Source: a phage
Direction: 5' to 3' (one strand)
Assembly (NCBI GenBank): GCA_012225525.1
Contig: GCA_012225525.1_3923.1
Length of the DNA stretch: 64,000 nt
A model generated the notes under the pieces. It had not been told where the DNA came from. It did not search any database and saw only the letters and a list, made by a program, of their open reading frames with translations. Made by a program: the position numbers and the translations under genes. Position 1 is the first letter of the stretch; every line of letters begins with the position of its first letter. This document shows positions 5,086 through 10,988 of this stretch, piece after piece.

Positions 5086-6261
5086 ATGGCAGTAGGTGAA
5101 ATTCAAATTAGTGCCTTGCCACAAGCGGCCTTACCAATTGATTTGAGTGATATCTTCCACCTTAAGCAAGGTGTTGAGGATAAAAGATGTACGCTTGAGC
5201 AGTTGTTAGCACCTCACGCATCTCTGAGGAATAATCCTCATGGTGTAACTAAATCACAAGTGGGTCTTGATAATGTTATTAACTCTCTTCAATTAGTTGC
5301 AGCTAATAACTTGTCAGACATTGTGAATGTTGCTGAGGCAAGAGCAAATCTACAAATTATGTCGTCAGAGGAAGTGAATAATTTAATTAAGAAACATATT
5401 GACGATAAAAGTAACCCACACAATACAACGAAAGCACAGGTTGGTTTAAGTAACGTTCAAAACTGGACAACATCTAATTTATATAATGAAGATGCTGATA
5501 AATATGCTACAGCAAAAGCAGTCAATAACTTGTACAAAGCTATCCAAGCATCATATCCAGTAGGGACAATCCATCTATCTGTGAATCCAGCTAACCCATC
5601 CACTTACTTACTTTGTGGAGGTACTTGGGAATTAGTTTCTAAAGGTAGAGCACTAGTTGGCTATGATACAGATTCTAGACCTGTTGGTTCAATGTTTGGT
5701 TCTCAGACTGTAGCATTAACAAATAATAATTTACCAGCGCATACTCACTCTATCTATCTAACAGGTGGTGGTCATACACACTCTGCAAGCGTATCTATCT
5801 CTAGCTTTGATTATGGTTCAAAAAGTACATCGACTTTTGATTATGGTACGAAGACAACTAACAGTGCTGGTGCTCACACGCACACGTTTAGTGGCACAAC
5901 AAGCAATGCTGGTAACCACAACCATAGAGTACCTATGAGGGGTAATGATAGAGGTGGTACAAATGCTATTACTGCATCTGCTGATGCTGGTGTTGGTAAT
6001 GCTATGTATACTGATTTAGCTGGTGCTCACACCCATAGCTTCTCAGGCACAGCTGCATCATCTGGTGCTCATAGTCATACTGTTGCAATTGGTGCTCATA
6101 GTCACACTGTTAATATTGGTTCACACAGCCATACAGGTACTGTTACTGTTTCTAGCTCTGAGCATACACACTCAGGGACATCTGGTTCTGTTGGTGGTGG
6201 TCAAGCTTTCAGTGTTGAGCAGCCATCTTTTGTAGTGTATGTGTGGCAGAGAACAGCTTAA
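5086..6261 (+). CDS. tail fibre protein with C-terminal His-x-His repeat domain
   Basis: Repeated HTHS / HSHT / HNH motifs in a Gly/Ser/Thr-rich C-terminus (AHTHSIYLTGGGHTHSAS, GAHSHTVAIGAHSHTVNIGSHSHTG), as in metal-coordinating tips of T4 gp37-type fibres. Confidence 0.7.
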   Translation: MAVGEIQISALPQAALPIDLSDIFHLKQGVEDKRCTLEQLLAPHASLRNNPHGVTKSQVGLDNVINSLQLVAANNLSDIVNVAEARANLQIMSSEEVNNLIKKHIDDKSNPHNTTKAQVGLSNVQNWTTSNLYNEDADKYATAKAVNNLYKAIQASYPVGTIHLSVNPANPSTYLLCGGTWELVSKGRALVGYDTDSRPVGSMFGSQTVALTNNNLPAHTHSIYLTGGGHTHSASVSISSFDYGSKSTSTFDYGTKTTNSAGAHTHTFSGTTSNAGNHNHRVPMRGNDRGGTNAITASADAGVGNAMYTDLAGAHTHSFSGTAASSGAHSHTVAIGAHSHTVNIGSHSHTGTVTVSSSEHTHSGTSGSVGGGQAFSVEQPSFVVYVWQRTA

Positions 6262-6307
6262 TTTCTTTACAGGGGCTTTATAGCCCCTTTTAAGAGGAAA
6301 ATTCATA

Positions 6308-8857
6308 ATGGCAGATTACAAATTGAGTCAATTAAACTCAATCGACACAATTCGTTCAGAAGACCTATTGCACATCAGAGTTAAGAAAAGACCTGAAATG
6401 TTGGGTGATGAAGACCGTAGAATGACCTATCAAGACTTCTTAGCTTCCTTCAAACTAGAAAGGTTTGTTCAGATTGCTGGAAGCACTATGATTGGGGATT
6501 TAGGTATTGTCAAGTTACTTTACGGTGGAAAGTCTGTATTTGACCCTACAGGCTCTTCTGAGATTACTATTGGGGATATTTTAAAGACTTTTAAAATTAA
6601 CGCAAATGGTCTTAAACTAACTATTGCAGATGCTTCAAGGTCAGCAACTGTTTATCATACTCTGAATAAGCCAAGTCCTAATGAGCTTGGTATGAGGACT
6701 AATGAAGAGAATGATGCAAGATACGCAAGACTTGCTATCACAAACACATTCTCTGGAACTCAAAATATTCAAGGTGATGCTAACTTACTTCGCCTTAGAA
6801 ACCAAAATGCAAATAATGCACAATATATCGAAGGTGTAAACCTAGATGGTTCGGCTAGATGGTGGGTTGGTATTGGTAGTAATGGCTCTGACGAAGTAAA
6901 GCTGTACAATAACAAATACAACTCAGCCTTGACTGTTGCAAGTAATGTCTCTGTTAATAAGTCTTTAGCAATCACTGGTCAAGTTCAACCTTCAGATTTC
7001 TCTAACTTAGATGCCAGATACTTCACTCAGACAGTTGCTAATCAGAGATTTGCACAGTTAGCTGGTAATAACACCTTTACAGGTGCTAACACATTTAGGA
7101 CTATGAGTGTTATCTCAAATGCTGCTGCTATCACACTGCAATGTGCATCAGCAAACGAATCCCTGTATCTACTTGCAAAAGATTATGAAGGTGGAAACTT
7201 ATGGTATCTTGGTAAAGGTAGTTCAGGTGCTGGTGTAACTATCTACAACTATACCACTAACACCTCTTTAGTCTTAGATGCTGCTGGAGTATCAGCAAAT
7301 AAAAATGTCAGAATCACTGGTCAAGTTCAACCTTCAGATTGGGCTAACATTGACTCTAGATATATTCCGGCAGCAACATTAAGTACGATTGCAAGAACTA
7401 ATGCAAGGAATACTTTTAATGGTGTACAGACAGTTGTTACGGATAATGAAGGTCTGATTGTTAAAAACTCTACTCAGAATAGACCATTATATATTCGTGG
7501 TGTGGACACTACTAATGTATCAAGATGGTGGATTGGTGTTGGTGGTGCTGATACGAATGATGTTACCCTAAATAACAGTTATTCTGGAACCCAATTGGTT
7601 CTCGGGAATACAACATCATACATTAACAAAACATTGACTATTGCTGGACAAGTTCAACCTTCAGATTTCTCTAACTTAGATGCTAGATACTTTACGCAAA
7701 GTGCTAGTGATAGTAGATACCTAAGAATCAGAAGCACTAGCTTCAATGTGGGAAACACTGATAAGTGGGCTAAAATTGCCACTGTTGTGATGCCACAATC
7801 AGCATCCACTGCTGTTATTGAGGTATTTGGTGGGTCAGGTTTTAATATTAATACACCAAACCAAGCAGGTAAATGTGAAATTGTTCTGCGAACTTCAAAT
7901 AACAATCCAAAGGGCTTAAATGTTGTTGCTTGGAGAACATCAGAGAACACCATTGTCAGGGATATTGGTTATGTGAATACTTCTGGAGACACCTATGATA
8001 TTTACTATCTTGCTGGTACGTATCAAAACAGCACAACGACAAGGGTTCAGTCTTCTAGTAATGCAAGTGTACAGTTGTTTGAAGTCCCACAGACATTTGA
8101 TGATGCTCCACAAGGTATTGTGAAGGGTACAATTGCAAAATACTACACAAGTTTGCAAAAACCAACCCCTTCAGATATTGGTGCATACACTAAAGCAGAA
8201 ACTGACCAGAAGATTGCAGAAGCAATTAGTGACTCTACAGACCTGAATAAAATCTATCCAGTAGGTATTGTAACGTGGTTTAACAGCAATGTTAACCCTA
8301 ATACAGCACTTCCTGGGTTAACTTGGACGTACCTGAATAATGGTGTTGGTAGAACTATTAGAATTGCAGCAGCAAACGGTTCAGATGTTGCTACAACTGG
8401 TGGCTCAGACTCTGTAACGCTGTCTGTTGGTAACTTACCTTCACACACGCACAGCTTCTCTGCTACTACTTCATCATTTGACTATGGTACTAAGACTTCT
8501 AGCACAACTGGTAACCACAACCACAACAGAGGTACTATGGAGATTACTGGTTCATTTGGTTACTTCAGAAGTGACGCTAGTAGCTTCTACACAGCAAGTG
8601 GTGCATTCTACCTCGGTAGTCAGGCAGGTTCTAAAGGGTATACTGGTAACAACTTTACTAATGGTATCCCTGTCAACTTCAACGCATCAAGAAACTGGTC
8701 TGGTGTAACGAATACAACAGGTAACCACAGCCACACTGTTGGTATTGGTGCTCACAGCCACACAGTTAGCGGTAACACAGGTGGTACTGGTTCTGGTTCA
8801 GCATTTAGTGTTACTAACCAGTTCTATAAGTTAATGGCTTGGGTAAGAACTGCTTAA
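6308..8857 (+). CDS. long tail fibre protein
   Basis: 849 aa; three internal copies of ITGQVQPSD(F/W)(S/A)N(L/I)D(A/S)RY; C-terminus has the same HxH motifs (SHTHSFSATTSSFDYGTK, GNHSHTVGIGAHSHTV) as the preceding fibre gene. Confidence 0.75.
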   Translation: MADYKLSQLNSIDTIRSEDLLHIRVKKRPEMLGDEDRRMTYQDFLASFKLERFVQIAGSTMIGDLGIVKLLYGGKSVFDPTGSSEITIGDILKTFKINANGLKLTIADASRSATVYHTLNKPSPNELGMRTNEENDARYARLAITNTFSGTQNIQGDANLLRLRNQNANNAQYIEGVNLDGSARWWVGIGSNGSDEVKLYNNKYNSALTVASNVSVNKSLAITGQVQPSDFSNLDARYFTQTVANQRFAQLAGNNTFTGANTFRTMSVISNAAAITLQCASANESLYLLAKDYEGGNLWYLGKGSSGAGVTIYNYTTNTSLVLDAAGVSANKNVRITGQVQPSDWANIDSRYIPAATLSTIARTNARNTFNGVQTVVTDNEGLIVKNSTQNRPLYIRGVDTTNVSRWWIGVGGADTNDVTLNNSYSGTQLVLGNTTSYINKTLTIAGQVQPSDFSNLDARYFTQSASDSRYLRIRSTSFNVGNTDKWAKIATVVMPQSASTAVIEVFGGSGFNINTPNQAGKCEIVLRTSNNNPKGLNVVAWRTSENTIVRDIGYVNTSGDTYDIYYLAGTYQNSTTTRVQSSSNASVQLFEVPQTFDDAPQGIVKGTIAKYYTSLQKPTPSDIGAYTKAETDQKIAEAISDSTDLNKIYPVGIVTWFNSNVNPNTALPGLTWTYLNNGVGRTIRIAAANGSDVATTGGSDSVTLSVGNLPSHTHSFSATTSSFDYGTKTSSTTGNHNHNRGTMEITGSFGYFRSDASSFYTASGAFYLGSQAGSKGYTGNNFTNGIPVNFNASRNWSGVTNTTGNHSHTVGIGAHSHTVSGNTGGTGSGSAFSVTNQFYKLMAWVRTA

Positions 8858-8936
8858 TCCCTTGTTGACTGATTGTTAAGATGGTGTTAATATTCTTTAT
8901 GGGTATTCTCACCATCTTGGCTGATGAGGTGATTAA

Positions 8937-9131
8937 ATGCCTACAATCCTAGCAATTCTTCTAAAAAATCTAGGTAGCTTCTTCTGGAAACTCATTTTAT
9001 CCCTTCTAAGTGAATACATGATTGAGAAAGTGTTCTTTAAGCTTGCAAGATACCTTGCGAGTAAAACAGATACACCTATTGATGATGAGTTCGTAGATAA
9101 CTTAGAAAAAGCTTTTAAGGGGGAGAAATAA
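8937..9131 (+). CDS. small membrane protein
   Basis: 64 aa, hydrophobic N-terminal segment (ILAILLKNLGSFFWKLILSLL). Confidence 0.35.
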   Translation: MPTILAILLKNLGSFFWKLILSLLSEYMIEKVFFKLARYLASKTDTPIDDEFVDNLEKAFKGEK

Positions 9132-9503
9132 ATGAAGTGGCTAGAGGAAGCTTTTAAAAATAATATTGGTGCAATTGTAGTTGGTATTTTTAGTGTTATT
9201 GGGATGTATACCACTATGCAAGTCTCAAGTGGTAAGCAGGAAGTGTCTGTCACAACAAAGTTACAGCAGCTAGATAATTATTCCAAAAGTAACTATTCAG
9301 CTATTCGTGATTTACAGTCTGACATGAGATTGATTCAGCTAGGGATGGAGAACCAGAAAGTTCAGTTAGAGAATGTTAAGGGTGAAAACGCAAAACTTAC
9401 CAAAACCCTTGATAAATTCTCTGACAGTGTGAACAATCTGGCTCAATCAGTATCAGCCTTGCAAGCTATTACTGAAAAGAACACAAAGAATACTGAAAAA
9501 TAA
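9132..9503 (+). CDS. membrane-anchored coiled-coil protein
   Basis: 123 aa, one N-terminal TM helix (IGAIVVGIFSVIGMY) then Q/L/N-rich heptad-like region; followed by a terminator. Confidence 0.4.
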   Translation: MKWLEEAFKNNIGAIVVGIFSVIGMYTTMQVSSGKQEVSVTTKLQQLDNYSKSNYSAIRDLQSDMRLIQLGMENQKVQLENVKGENAKLTKTLDKFSDSVNNLAQSVSALQAITEKNTKNTEK

Positions 9504-9541: not shown

Positions 9542-10441
9542 TTACTTACCTACTGACAGAGGTGCTTCAATCTTCCCTGCATGTTGGTAGTTGTTAATAC
9601 CACCAATAAAATCACTTGCAGTAAGATGTTTCAGGTCACTCAGGGTGTTAAGCTGTACACCAATCTCAAAAGTAGGTGCATGGAACTCTTCATTGTTCAT
9701 CAGTTCATAAACCTGTTTCATATGGTTCTGATAAATCTGAGTATCTCCAAAGACACCTATCAAGTACCGTGGAGTGTATCCAGTCATCTTACAAAGAACT
9801 TCTAAGATGAAACCATAAGACGCAATATTAAACGGAAGTCCTAAAAAGGTGTCTACTGAACGTTGATACCACTGTAAGTCAACTTCACCCTCATTAGTGA
9901 TATAAATCTGAAACAGAACATGACAAGGTGCTAAAGCCATTGAGTTTGCTGCAATATCTGCTGCATTCCAAGCATTAACAAGCATGTAACGGTCTGTGAT
10001 ATCACCCTTCATCTTCGTTACTAAGGTCTCTAGCTGGTCTACAACACAACCATTATGACCTTCAAAGTTTCTCCACTGAACCCCATAGATTCTCCCACCT
10101 GCATCTTCTAACCAATCTTGTTCAGAAGAATAATTAGAACTTAACCAGCGTTTAAAATCATCTGACCAGATAGTCCAGCGTTCCCCATCATTTTCACCCC
10201 AAGTGCGATAACGGAGTTCACCAAGCTTATTCTCGCCGTTCAGGAACCATAAAGCTTCCCCAATAACTTGCCGTGTAAACACCTGTTTAGATGTTAAGAG
10301 CGGGAAACCAGTCCTCATATCAAAACGAAACTGAGGTGGAGCAAAAGCAGAGATAACATCTCCAGTTCGTGTAGTACGCAGTTCACCAACGGATAAAACA
10401 TGGTTCAGGATATTTTTGTAACTTGTATCTGCTTGTGACAT
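9542..10441 (-). CDS. thyA: thymidylate synthase
   Basis: 299 aa; contains LAPCH active-site cysteine context typical of ThyA; adjacent to DHFR. Confidence 0.8.
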   Translation of the reverse strand: MSQADTSYKNILNHVLSVGELRTTRTGDVISAFAPPQFRFDMRTGFPLLTSKQVFTRQVIGEALWFLNGENKLGELRYRTWGENDGERWTIWSDDFKRWLSSNYSSEQDWLEDAGGRIYGVQWRNFEGHNGCVVDQLETLVTKMKGDITDRYMLVNAWNAADIAANSMALAPCHVLFQIYITNEGEVDLQWYQRSVDTFLGLPFNIASYGFILEVLCKMTGYTPRYLIGVFGDTQIYQNHMKQVYELMNNEEFHAPTFEIGVQLNTLSDLKHLTASDFIGGINNYQHAGKIEAPLSVGK

Positions 10442-10442
10442 A

Positions 10443-10988
10443 TCAAAAGTGTCCTTTTACTTGTGGAACATAAATTTCAAAAGTTGCTTTACCATCCTCT
10501 GATGGTTTTGACTGTACCTTTGTAAACACACGGTTATCATACAGCTTCTCAAAGAAGTTTTCAAAAGGTAAATGCACAGTGGCCTCTTCAGTAACTTTAT
10601 GGAAAACAGTATGGAACACCACACTAGCATACGGTAAAGCATTGACAAGGATACCTGCACCACCAATTACAAAGACATCTTCATCAATAGAGCTATCAAG
10701 ATACTTCAAAAATGCTCCAAATGACTCTTTACTGGCTTTAGCATACATTACATCATCTTTGCCAAAGTCTATACCTAAGTATGGTACAGAATTTGTTAAG
10801 ATGAGGTTTGCACGTTCTGGTAAAGGTTTACTACCCAGAGTCTTAAAAGTCTCATTACCCATGACTACTAAGTTATTTTTAGTGAGTCTCTTAAACTCTT
10901 GCATGTCCTGTTTATGTCGAGGCCACGGCATACCAGTCGGTGTACCAAACTCCCCATTTTCACCACTTGCAAAGATTAATTTAATCAT
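10443..10988 (-). CDS. frd: dihydrofolate reductase
   Basis: 181 aa; N-terminal IFA..NG.FG and VIGGAGI glycine-rich NADPH-binding motif; coupled to thyA. Confidence 0.7.
   Translation of the reverse strand: MIKLIFASGENGEFGTPTGMPWPRHKQDMQEFKRLTKNNLVVMGNETFKTLGSKPLPERANLILTNSVPYLGIDFGKDDVMYAKASKESFGAFLKYLDSSIDEDVFVIGGAGILVNALPYASVVFHTVFHKVTEEATVHLPFENFFEKLYDNRVFTKVQSKPSEDGKATFEIYVPQVKGHF

Follow-up and report, generated by a model that had tools for sequence, protein, structure and literature searches.

Why does the gene for a phage long tail fibre carry the same short stretch of DNA three times, and what has this repetition meant for the fibre? The question arises from a 64,000-nucleotide (nt) stretch of phage DNA (GenBank assembly GCA_012225525.1, contig GCA_012225525.1_3923.1), which we call the window throughout. 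Within it, a single open reading frame at 6308-8857 on the + strand encodes the 849-residue long tail fibre (LTF) protein, and a preliminary description of the window claimed three direct repeats inside this gene. We find that the repeats delimit three related shaft domains, and we put at roughly 70% the probability that the LTF is a homotrimer with three tandem pyramid-like domains, in which conserved connectors serve as landing pads for the exchange of domain cassettes.

The LTF protein matches the PHROG family phrog_4277 (tail fiber protein) over residues 1-849 (E = 0). The DNA of the gene shares 98% identity with Escherichia phage KEP3 and, over the aligned parts, about 98% with wV8 and the O157 typing phages; in all, the search matched 222 phage records, nearly all of them Escherichia or Salmonella Felixounavirus. 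Judged by these similarities, the window derives from a wV8/KEP3-like Felixounavirus. The gene is probably the orthologue of Sf14 gp53 and Bas63 gp27 (Bas63 being likened by description), and the architecture of these fibres was described in two cryo-electron microscopy papers in 2025 (Bas63: Sci Adv, PMC12609058; Sf14: Commun Biol, PMC11821841).

A periodic repeat in the shaft

A repeat search of the DNA returned a family of direct repeats (D1) with three copies of 76 nt each, which lie at what we will call junctions J1 (6954-7029, VNKSLAITGQVQPSDFSNLDARYFTQ), J2 (7296-7371, ANKNVRITGQVQPSDWANIDSRYIPA) and J3 (7623-7698, INKTLTIAGQVQPSDFSNLDARYFTQ). With J1 as the reference copy, J2 is 68% and J3 83% identical to it. 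The copies are spaced by 342 and 327 nt, both multiples of three, and hence all lie in phase with the reading frame. The claim of three direct repeats is thereby borne out, as a 76-nt family in frame. The preliminary description had placed the copies at about 6970, 7312 and 7632; all three are there, but the third lies some 10 nt from its stated position. It had also called them near-identical in nucleotide sequence. A 41-mer noted earlier does occur exactly at 6974-7014, with 34/41 matches at 7316-7356 and 39/41 at 7643-7683, but this likeness is mostly amino acid conservation plus codon bias. The longest exact matches between junctions are 29 nt (J1-J2), 35 nt (J1-J3) and 19 nt (J2-J3).

An 18-mer common to all junctions, CAAGTTCAACCTTCAGAT, has exactly three sites in the window, on the + strand only. 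Allowing up to three mismatches, 0.18 sites are expected by chance, and three were reached in none of 100 shuffles. The 76-nt repeat is real and not a chance product. At the protein level, the three junctions read ITGQVQPSDFSNLDARYF, ITGQVQPSDWANIDSRYI and IAGQVQPSDFSNLDARYF, and the connector consensus that they encode is I(T/A)GQVQPSD(F/W)xN(L/I)D(A/S)RY.

The periodicity is not confined to the connectors. A second patch (family D5) recurs with the same period as D1, reading RWWVGIGS at 6857-6880, LWYLGKGS at 7199-7222 and RWWIGVGG at 7523-7546, and an NTFxG patch is likewise periodic in a self dot-plot of the protein. In the same plot, 24-29 high-scoring windows of 20 residues were found per offset at offsets of 109, 114 and 222/223, which is the periodicity of a whole domain. 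D5, NTFxG, the dot-plot and the Pfam matches given below are all domain-length, rather than limited to the short connector peptide, and they uphold the earlier suggestion of a tandemly triplicated shaft domain of about 110 residues. Tandem Repeats Finder, applied to 5500-9500, missed the 330-nt array, whose units are too diverged for it, and returned only a 27-nt repeat, encoding HxH motifs, in the upstream gene.

Identity of the repeated unit

The whole LTF protein scores 255.6 bits against the Pfam family PF20744 (gp37_trimer), in three matched stretches. When scanned separately, each unit exceeds the curated gathering cut-off of 21.7 bits: unit 1 (residues 136-234, 6713-7009) with 114.8 bits (E = 1.8e-33), unit 2 (residues 235-348, 7010-7351, also delimited by unit alignment) with 65.6 bits (E = 4.2e-18), and unit 3 (residues 349-457, 7352-7678) with 101.7 bits (E = 2.2e-29). 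Aligned pairwise, the units share 43-44% amino acid identity, with 28 invariant columns. Our literature search on PF20744 found no publications.

A profile built from the three units matched T7 gp17 in the Protein Data Bank (PDB; 4a0u_A, 4a0t_A and 7boz_a, E = 6.8e-7 to 1e-6), aligning to residues 371-438, the pyramid domain. We also modelled residues 121-480 as a monomer with AlphaFold, using 30 homologues (mean predicted local distance difference test score, pLDDT, 71.6). In the model, each unit core consists of five strands with a pLDDT of 80-94 (83-92 in unit 1), while the connectors contain short, low-confidence helices at PSD and ARY; low confidence is expected here, as the chain was modelled outside its trimer. 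The best Foldseek match to the model was again 4a0t_A (probability 1.00, root-mean-square deviation 1.6 Å over 63 aligned columns, 27% identity), so that the predicted chain shares the beta-meander fold of a single pyramid face. Profile and predicted fold both indicate that each unit is homologous to the T7 gp17 pyramid domain.

Going by the Pfam name, the unit would instead be homologous to T4 gp37 or gp34. We rejected this, as T4 gp37, gp34 and gp36 had no PF20744 match at E <= 0.01, and a hidden Markov model (HMM) of 274 unit sequences reached only E = 0.2-1.1 against T4 gp34-gp37. The T4 structures 5nxf, 5nxh and 4uxe were among the top Foldseek matches, though weak ones (E = 0.16-0.4, probability about 0.2).

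In terms of this domain, the DNA repeat encodes the last strand of one pyramid-like copy and the connector leading to the next; J1, for example, covers the end of unit 1 and the connector that follows. The connector would correspond to the 'triple alpha-helix and turn' element described between the shaft domains of the Bas63 fibre (PMC12609058), which lies on the fibre axis. Homology, together with the fibre densities of Bas63 and Sf14, points to the LTF being a trimer as well.

A degenerate form of the junction (GGNCARGTNCARCCNTCNGAYTKB) had single exact matches in three IMG/VR contigs (L052, L056 and L060) of 30, 50 and 15 kb, sizes that are unfit for Felixounavirus. The connector may occur in the fibres of other phage groups.

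Conserved connectors and exchanged cores

To see how the units vary, we compared the fibre with its relatives, using 24 gene sequences and 146 distinct proteins. The codon-aligned genes showed an amino acid conservation of 0.88-0.99 in the N-terminus and 0.85-0.9 at the junctions, vs 0.36-0.63 in the unit cores; the middle module (residues 466-615) and the tip (residues 740-800) were also variable. The connectors thus form conserved islands, with about 80-98% nucleotide identity among relatives, between cores that are about 50% identical where their types differ. For J1, Felixounavirus orthologues reached 81-99% and the three most divergent loci 66-69%. The variable cores span gene nt ~424-665 in unit 1 (6731-6972), ~770-1005 in unit 2 (7077-7312) and ~1109-1342 in unit 3 (7416-7649). 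Orthologues do not grade smoothly in the core of unit 1, which is either at least 90% or about 50% identical to that of the window.

Individual relatives show which parts have been replaced. In wV8 (locus L009), identity to the window across unit 1, J1, unit 2, J2, unit 3 and J3 is 97, 92, 56, 96, 100 and 100%, and the unit-2 core is essentially the sole difference. In another relative (L027), the same six segments are 52, 89, 96, 95, 50 and 76% identical, so only the unit-2 core is shared, and in a third (L005), they are 97, 98, 63, 97, 51 and 87% identical, with the unit-1 core alone shared. The replacement also extends to the module that follows the shaft units. A class of fibres of 790 residues (L002) is 91-98% identical to the window through J3, becomes unrelated just past J3 (at gene nt 1392) and remains so until the KPTPSDIGAYTKAETD motif, after which it is 92% identical. 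This 788-790-residue class carries a shorter, unrelated middle module and is otherwise 84-97% identical; one of its members was found on 141 contigs.

The boundaries of these replacements recur, at gene nt ~424, 666-682, 769-773, 1003-1009, 1066-1108, 1342-1378 and 1853-1866. Across 190 gene pairs we counted 1259 sharp transitions in identity, almost none of which fell inside a core. They cluster at the edges of J1, for example, and pile up at gene nt 1831-1890, at a connector-like motif (KPTPSDIGAYTKAETDQKIA) beyond the middle module.

We then clustered the unit cores into cassette types at >=75% amino acid identity. The 439 cores from the 146 proteins fell into 53 types, and identities among slot-1 cores were bimodal, at >=80% or <50%. 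Written as the types in slots 1 to 3, the combinations present include (1,3,2), (1,4,2), (1,3,5), (8,3,2), (8,4,2) and (8,3,5), as well as (1,6,9), (1,6,2), (1,3,9), (8,3,9) and (10,3,9). In a four-gamete test, all four gametes were found for each pair of neighbouring slots. Such a combinatorial pattern is beyond point mutation but within the reach of recombination in the connector islands, which lie between the cores. From these comparisons, the shaft appears to vary because discrete domain cassettes are exchanged between conserved connectors, and not by diffuse drift.

Register shifts and unit number

Cassettes are not tied to one position in the shaft. The unit-1 type of the window (type 1) occurs at slot 3 in two proteins (P0120 and P0072) and at slot 2 in a GenBank isolate, Salmonella phage DaR-2019a (P0112), whose combination is (8,1,6); type 13 was found at slots 1 and 3. 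One 848-residue protein (P0013) has a hybrid unit 3, in which the first half is of the unit-3 type of the window and the second half of its unit-1 type. The change of type lies at the RWWxGxG patch, which suggests that this second periodic patch can also act as an exchange point. A five-unit gene carries in slot 4 a cassette like unit 1 of the window (78% nucleotide identity, vs 72% for the backbone).

This five-unit gene and a four-unit one came to light when 1.84 billion representative proteins were searched exhaustively with a profile, 185 of them proving to contain the domain. Of the closest matches, P0121 (1015 residues) has five units and P0122 (901 residues) has four. Both lie in the syntenic position on Ounavirinae-like contigs (77 and 87 kb), with backbones about 70-73% identical to the window. 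A third protein, P0058 (740 residues), likewise a syntenic orthologue, has two units. In it, a cassette of type 6, which is normally found before J2, runs straight into J3-type sequence, making the junction a J2/J3 chimera, as unequal exchange in the shared core would produce. We had considered its second unit as a unit-2/unit-3 hybrid or as novel sequence, and rejected both since it clusters with type 6, a type common at slot 2.

The comparison of repeat number in related phages therefore does turn up variants, with two, four and five units. The preliminary description had suggested that the repeats could allow length variation by unequal recombination, and on the evolutionary scale this is supported by these orthologues, by the shifted cassettes and by concerted evolution of the connectors (below). 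On the other hand, the triplication is ancient, length change is rare, and exchange in register would be the commoner outcome.

Constraint, recent duplication or exchange

A simpler explanation for the conserved connectors is purely structural. The connector would be indispensable to the fold and, together with codon bias, this would preserve its DNA, with no role in recombination, and the cores would diverge as point mutations accumulate under relaxed or diversifying selection. The first option given by the Bas63 authors, who attribute the variability to sequence variation, is of this kind (PMC12609058). It also fits that, between phages, the junction islands and the conserved N-terminus have about the same nucleotide identity. 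Further support comes from codon identity at the junctions of the window. The number of identical codons exceeded the expectation for J1-J2 (12/15, expected 7.5, P = 0.015) and for all three junctions together (8/14, expected 4.1, P = 0.025), but two of the three pairwise tests were not significant (J1-J3, 13/22, expected 10.2, P = 0.15; J2-J3, 9/14, expected 7.1, P = 0.23), and the unit cores are at chance codon identity.

Structural constraint does not account for the mosaics, however. Point mutation cannot leave one core 96-100% identical and the adjacent core about 50% identical, nor can it put a single cassette type into many backgrounds and more than one slot. Nor does it account for synonymous states that are lineage-specific and common to paralogous junctions. 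Among 19 non-redundant genes, synonymous concordance of the three junctions within a genome was 0.68, vs 0.627 when genomes were permuted (P = 0.0004). This is driven by a Ser codon: in some phages all three junctions have TCA, in others all three have TCT. Felixounavirus junctions read GGT CAA .. CCT TCA/TCT, while the five-unit gene has GGA and CCA AGT in 4/5 of its junctions and CAG in 5/5. A switch of serine from TCN to AGT at several paralogous sites, four of the five junctions in this gene, would be hard to explain without copying between junctions. Overall, we consider structural constraint without recombination unlikely.

It could also be that the repeat is a recent tandem duplication, or an active hotspot of length variation that frequently produces repeat-number variants in phage stocks. 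In favour of this, the copies keep frame and phase and contain 29-35 nt of exact identity, and natural genes with two, four and five units exist. But the units are only 43-44% identical, and outside the junctions the same codon was used at shared amino acids in 14/26, 11/23 and 10/20 cases, vs 11.4, 10.7 and 8.5 expected. With synonymous sites at chance and cores about 43% identical, the triplication must be ancient rather than recent. The three slots are also orthologous throughout the genus, with slot-specific features such as W..NIDSRY at J2, and three units are kept in 142/146 proteins. A recent origin or a hotspot is thus improbable.

Programmed diversification, by a diversity-generating retroelement, site-specific inversion or cassette switching from silent copies, would suit hypervariable segments sharply bounded by conserved sequence, but is highly improbable given that the junction core occurs three times in the window, always on the + strand and within the gene, with no inverted or silent donor copies seen, that the differences between cassettes (about 50% nucleotide identity) include indels and changes at every type of base and are not adenine-specific, and that the diversity lies between genomes, not within one.

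Cassette exchange at the connectors also has points that weigh against it. J2 keeps GAC and J1 and J3 keep GAT across the genus, and homogenisation is therefore incomplete. The excess of shared codons over the codon-usage expectation is only modest within the window, so peptide constraint and codon bias explain most of the DNA similarity; the uninterrupted 35-nt match between J1 and J3 is the only hint of more there. The copies are exactly identical over just 19-35 nt, a short length for homologous recombination to be efficient. The clustering of transitions at the island edges follows in part from how the segments were defined, and does not map physical crossovers. As for unit number, the two-unit P0058 comes from one SPAdes metagenome contig of 6.7x coverage, with a possible mis-join at the shared core, three units prevail in the close family to the extent given above, and the Bas63 authors saw no repeat-number variation among Felixounavirus fibres listed by the International Committee on Taxonomy of Viruses (ICTV; PMC12609058). 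Even so, exchange at the connectors over evolutionary time, occasionally out of register, is well supported by the comparison of relatives.

How cassettes may be exchanged

If connectors act as landing pads for cassette exchange, the process might run as follows. Packing of the connectors on the fibre's three-fold axis would constrain their sequence, so that they stay conserved while the cores are free to vary. Being conserved both between phages and between positions in one gene, the connectors would double as patches of homology. In-register crossovers between co-infecting phages would then swap single cores and generate many combinations. More rarely, out-of-register crossovers or gene conversion among J1, J2 and J3 would shift cassettes to other slots, produce hybrids and homogenise the connectors, and out-of-register crossovers would cause the in-frame gain or loss of whole units (342, 327 or 669 nt in this gene). 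The crossovers themselves would probably lie inside the connectors, and pressure from host surfaces or defence systems would presumably select among the products.

Organisation of the gene and its neighbourhood

Outside the three units, the LTF gene contains further modules, all on the + strand. The N-terminal region (residues 1-135, 6308-6712), highly conserved across the 24 orthologues as noted above, had no Pfam match; by the description of Bas63, it is presumably the part that binds the baseplate. The region ends in KPSPNELGMRTNEENDARY (linker 0). The connector-like motif of this linker, KPSPNELGMRTNEENDARYA (residues 121-140, 6668-6733), is the left bound of the unit array. To the right of the array, J3 forms the left boundary of the swappable middle module (residues ~466-615, 7703-8152), the part that is exchanged for an unrelated module in the 790-residue class; PHROG profiles from several tail fibre families match residues ~477-629. 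The right boundary of the module is the conserved KPTPSDIGAYTKAETDQKIA motif (residues 618-637, 8159-8218), which resembles linker 0 (dot-plot offset of 497 and BLASTP self-matches). Both of these motifs resemble the QPSD..D.RY connector.

The rest of the gene (8246-8854) encodes a C-terminal collar, needle and tip with HxH motifs. It matches Pfam Gp10_C at residues 647-756, and residues 707-828, which include the HSHTVGIGAHSHTV segment, match the receptor-binding tip of T4 gp37 (PDB 2xgf, E = 5.7e-7). In a sequence search of the PDB with the whole protein, this tip was the only match, and no Bas63 fibre chain was among the matches.

The gene order around the LTF is common to its relatives: wedge genes, a gene for a 100-residue protein, a 391-residue fibre, the LTF, and then thymidylate synthase and dihydrofolate reductase. 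The last two (9542-10441 and 10443-10988, both on the - strand and so opposite to the fibre module) come immediately downstream of it, an arrangement kept in all syntenic loci examined, including the relatives with four and five units. The 391-residue fibre gene (5086-6261, +) belongs to phrog_2097. It ends in the same HxH needle as the LTF and is presumably a shorter fibre, equivalent to Bas63 gp26.

Several small repeats occur in this shorter fibre gene. A 27-nt tandem repeat (2.1 copies, 87% matches), found especially at 6063-6120, encodes units of the GAHSHTV type. A motif is also duplicated at residues ~50-65 and 109-125 (NPHGVTKSQVGLDNV / NPHNTTKAQVGLSNV). Finally, a 54-nt stretch of the gene is 76% identical to 8715-8768 in the LTF gene; through this shared C-terminal stretch, the two fibre genes have potential recombination patches in common.

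Two further observations concern the window and its database relatives. ARAGORN found no tRNA genes in the 64-kb window. Felix O1-type genomes have a tRNA cluster, which must therefore lie in a part of the genome outside the window. Records with non-enterobacterial host labels, namely GenBank MG065664.1 ('Campylobacter phage A132') and one 'Staphylococcus' record, contain a Felixounavirus LTF gene (about 80% nucleotide identity over 92% of the query), which looks like host mislabelling or contamination.

Relation to known fibres

The repeat is real, but the architecture to which it belongs has been published, the genus is well sampled, and tail fibres are well known to evolve in this way, so the feature itself is largely already known. 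Like Bas63 gp27 and Sf14 gp53, the LTF is encoded by the same gene at the same genomic position, with an N-terminal baseplate-binding part, beta repeats with helix-and-turn connectors, variable repeat domains, and at the end a collar, needle and tip that carry HxH motifs and resemble T4 gp37. For Bas63, a T4 gp37-like collar, needle and head were described (PMC12609058), and for Sf14 gp53, T7 gp17-like domains have been reported (PMC11821841). The Bas63 paper counted five beta-helix repeats, whereas we find only three PF20744 units. The variability of repeats 2-5 of the Bas63 LTF was called 'not expected' (PMC12609058). Recombination is not discussed in that paper; here, in contrast, we find discrete cassettes that reassort and shift between slots, as well as orthologues with two, four and five units outside the ICTV set that it covered.

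The unit resembles the T7 gp17 pyramid (PDB 4A0T, residues 371-447) in sequence, in predicted fold and in its YI..(K/R)D....WY(I/V)G.G core. T7 gp17 has a single pyramid domain, directly under the receptor-binding tip, while the LTF has three in a tandem shaft with connectors. The shaft may also resemble T4 gp34 and gp12, in which alpha-helix-containing repeats and triangular P3-P5 domains have been described (Granell et al., 2017, PMC5537660). Like theirs, the LTF shaft would be built of small repeated trimeric modules, with axial three-helix elements and triangular five-stranded beta-sheet domains, and the Bas63 authors found the LTF rod 'very similar' to the gp34-type rod from their trimer model (PMC12609058). 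In sequence, the unit shows no detectable homology to T4 gp34 or gp37, and the fold match to 5nxf and 5nxh is weak.

By analogy, the closest mechanistic precedent is the distal fibre and adhesin of T-even phages. According to the account in Trojet et al. (2011, PMC3157838) of earlier work (Tetart 1996, 1998), exchanges occur there in or near conserved motifs, and duplication of a small fibre domain between repeated motifs alters the protein and the host range. As that account has it, conserved motifs alternate with hypervariable segments in gp37/gp38, as in the LTF, and in both, natural chimeras have exchange points at or near the motifs. Proteins and motifs are not the same, however: gp37/gp38 have His-boxes and glycine-rich motifs at their receptor-binding end, and the LTF has shaft pyramids with QVQPSD..D.RY connectors. 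The T-even case, as cited there, differs further in including experimental recombinants and host-range data.

What this analysis adds is an answer to the puzzle raised by the Bas63 paper of why the repeats of the LTF shaft are so variable. The 'unexpected' variability would be cassette exchange at the connector repeats, with rare shifts in register and two to five units across the subfamily. One could go further and see the shaft as a combinatorial array of cassettes (at least 50 core types in two to five interchangeable slots), in which the pyramid domains, as the maintained diversity would imply, are determinants of specificity and not inert spacers. We offer this only tentatively, as a possibility that is more doubtful than the exchange itself. 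If true, the shaft would contribute to specificity, for instance, through lateral contacts with O-antigen or lipopolysaccharide (LPS), or would help to evade a defence system that senses the fibre; O-antigen/LPS contact and defence evasion are two of the three possibilities left open by the Bas63 authors (PMC12609058).

Felix O1-type phages are used in the typing of Salmonella and E. coli, in biocontrol and in therapy, which gives these observations some practical relevance. The connectors are natural splice points at which chimeric fibres, or fibres of altered length, could be built in frame. If shaft cassettes do aid host recognition or the evasion of defences, predicting host range from the tip alone would be incomplete. 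Biologically, the array of cassettes in the LTF shaft is one more case of mosaic evolution, a mode long known in phage tail fibres.

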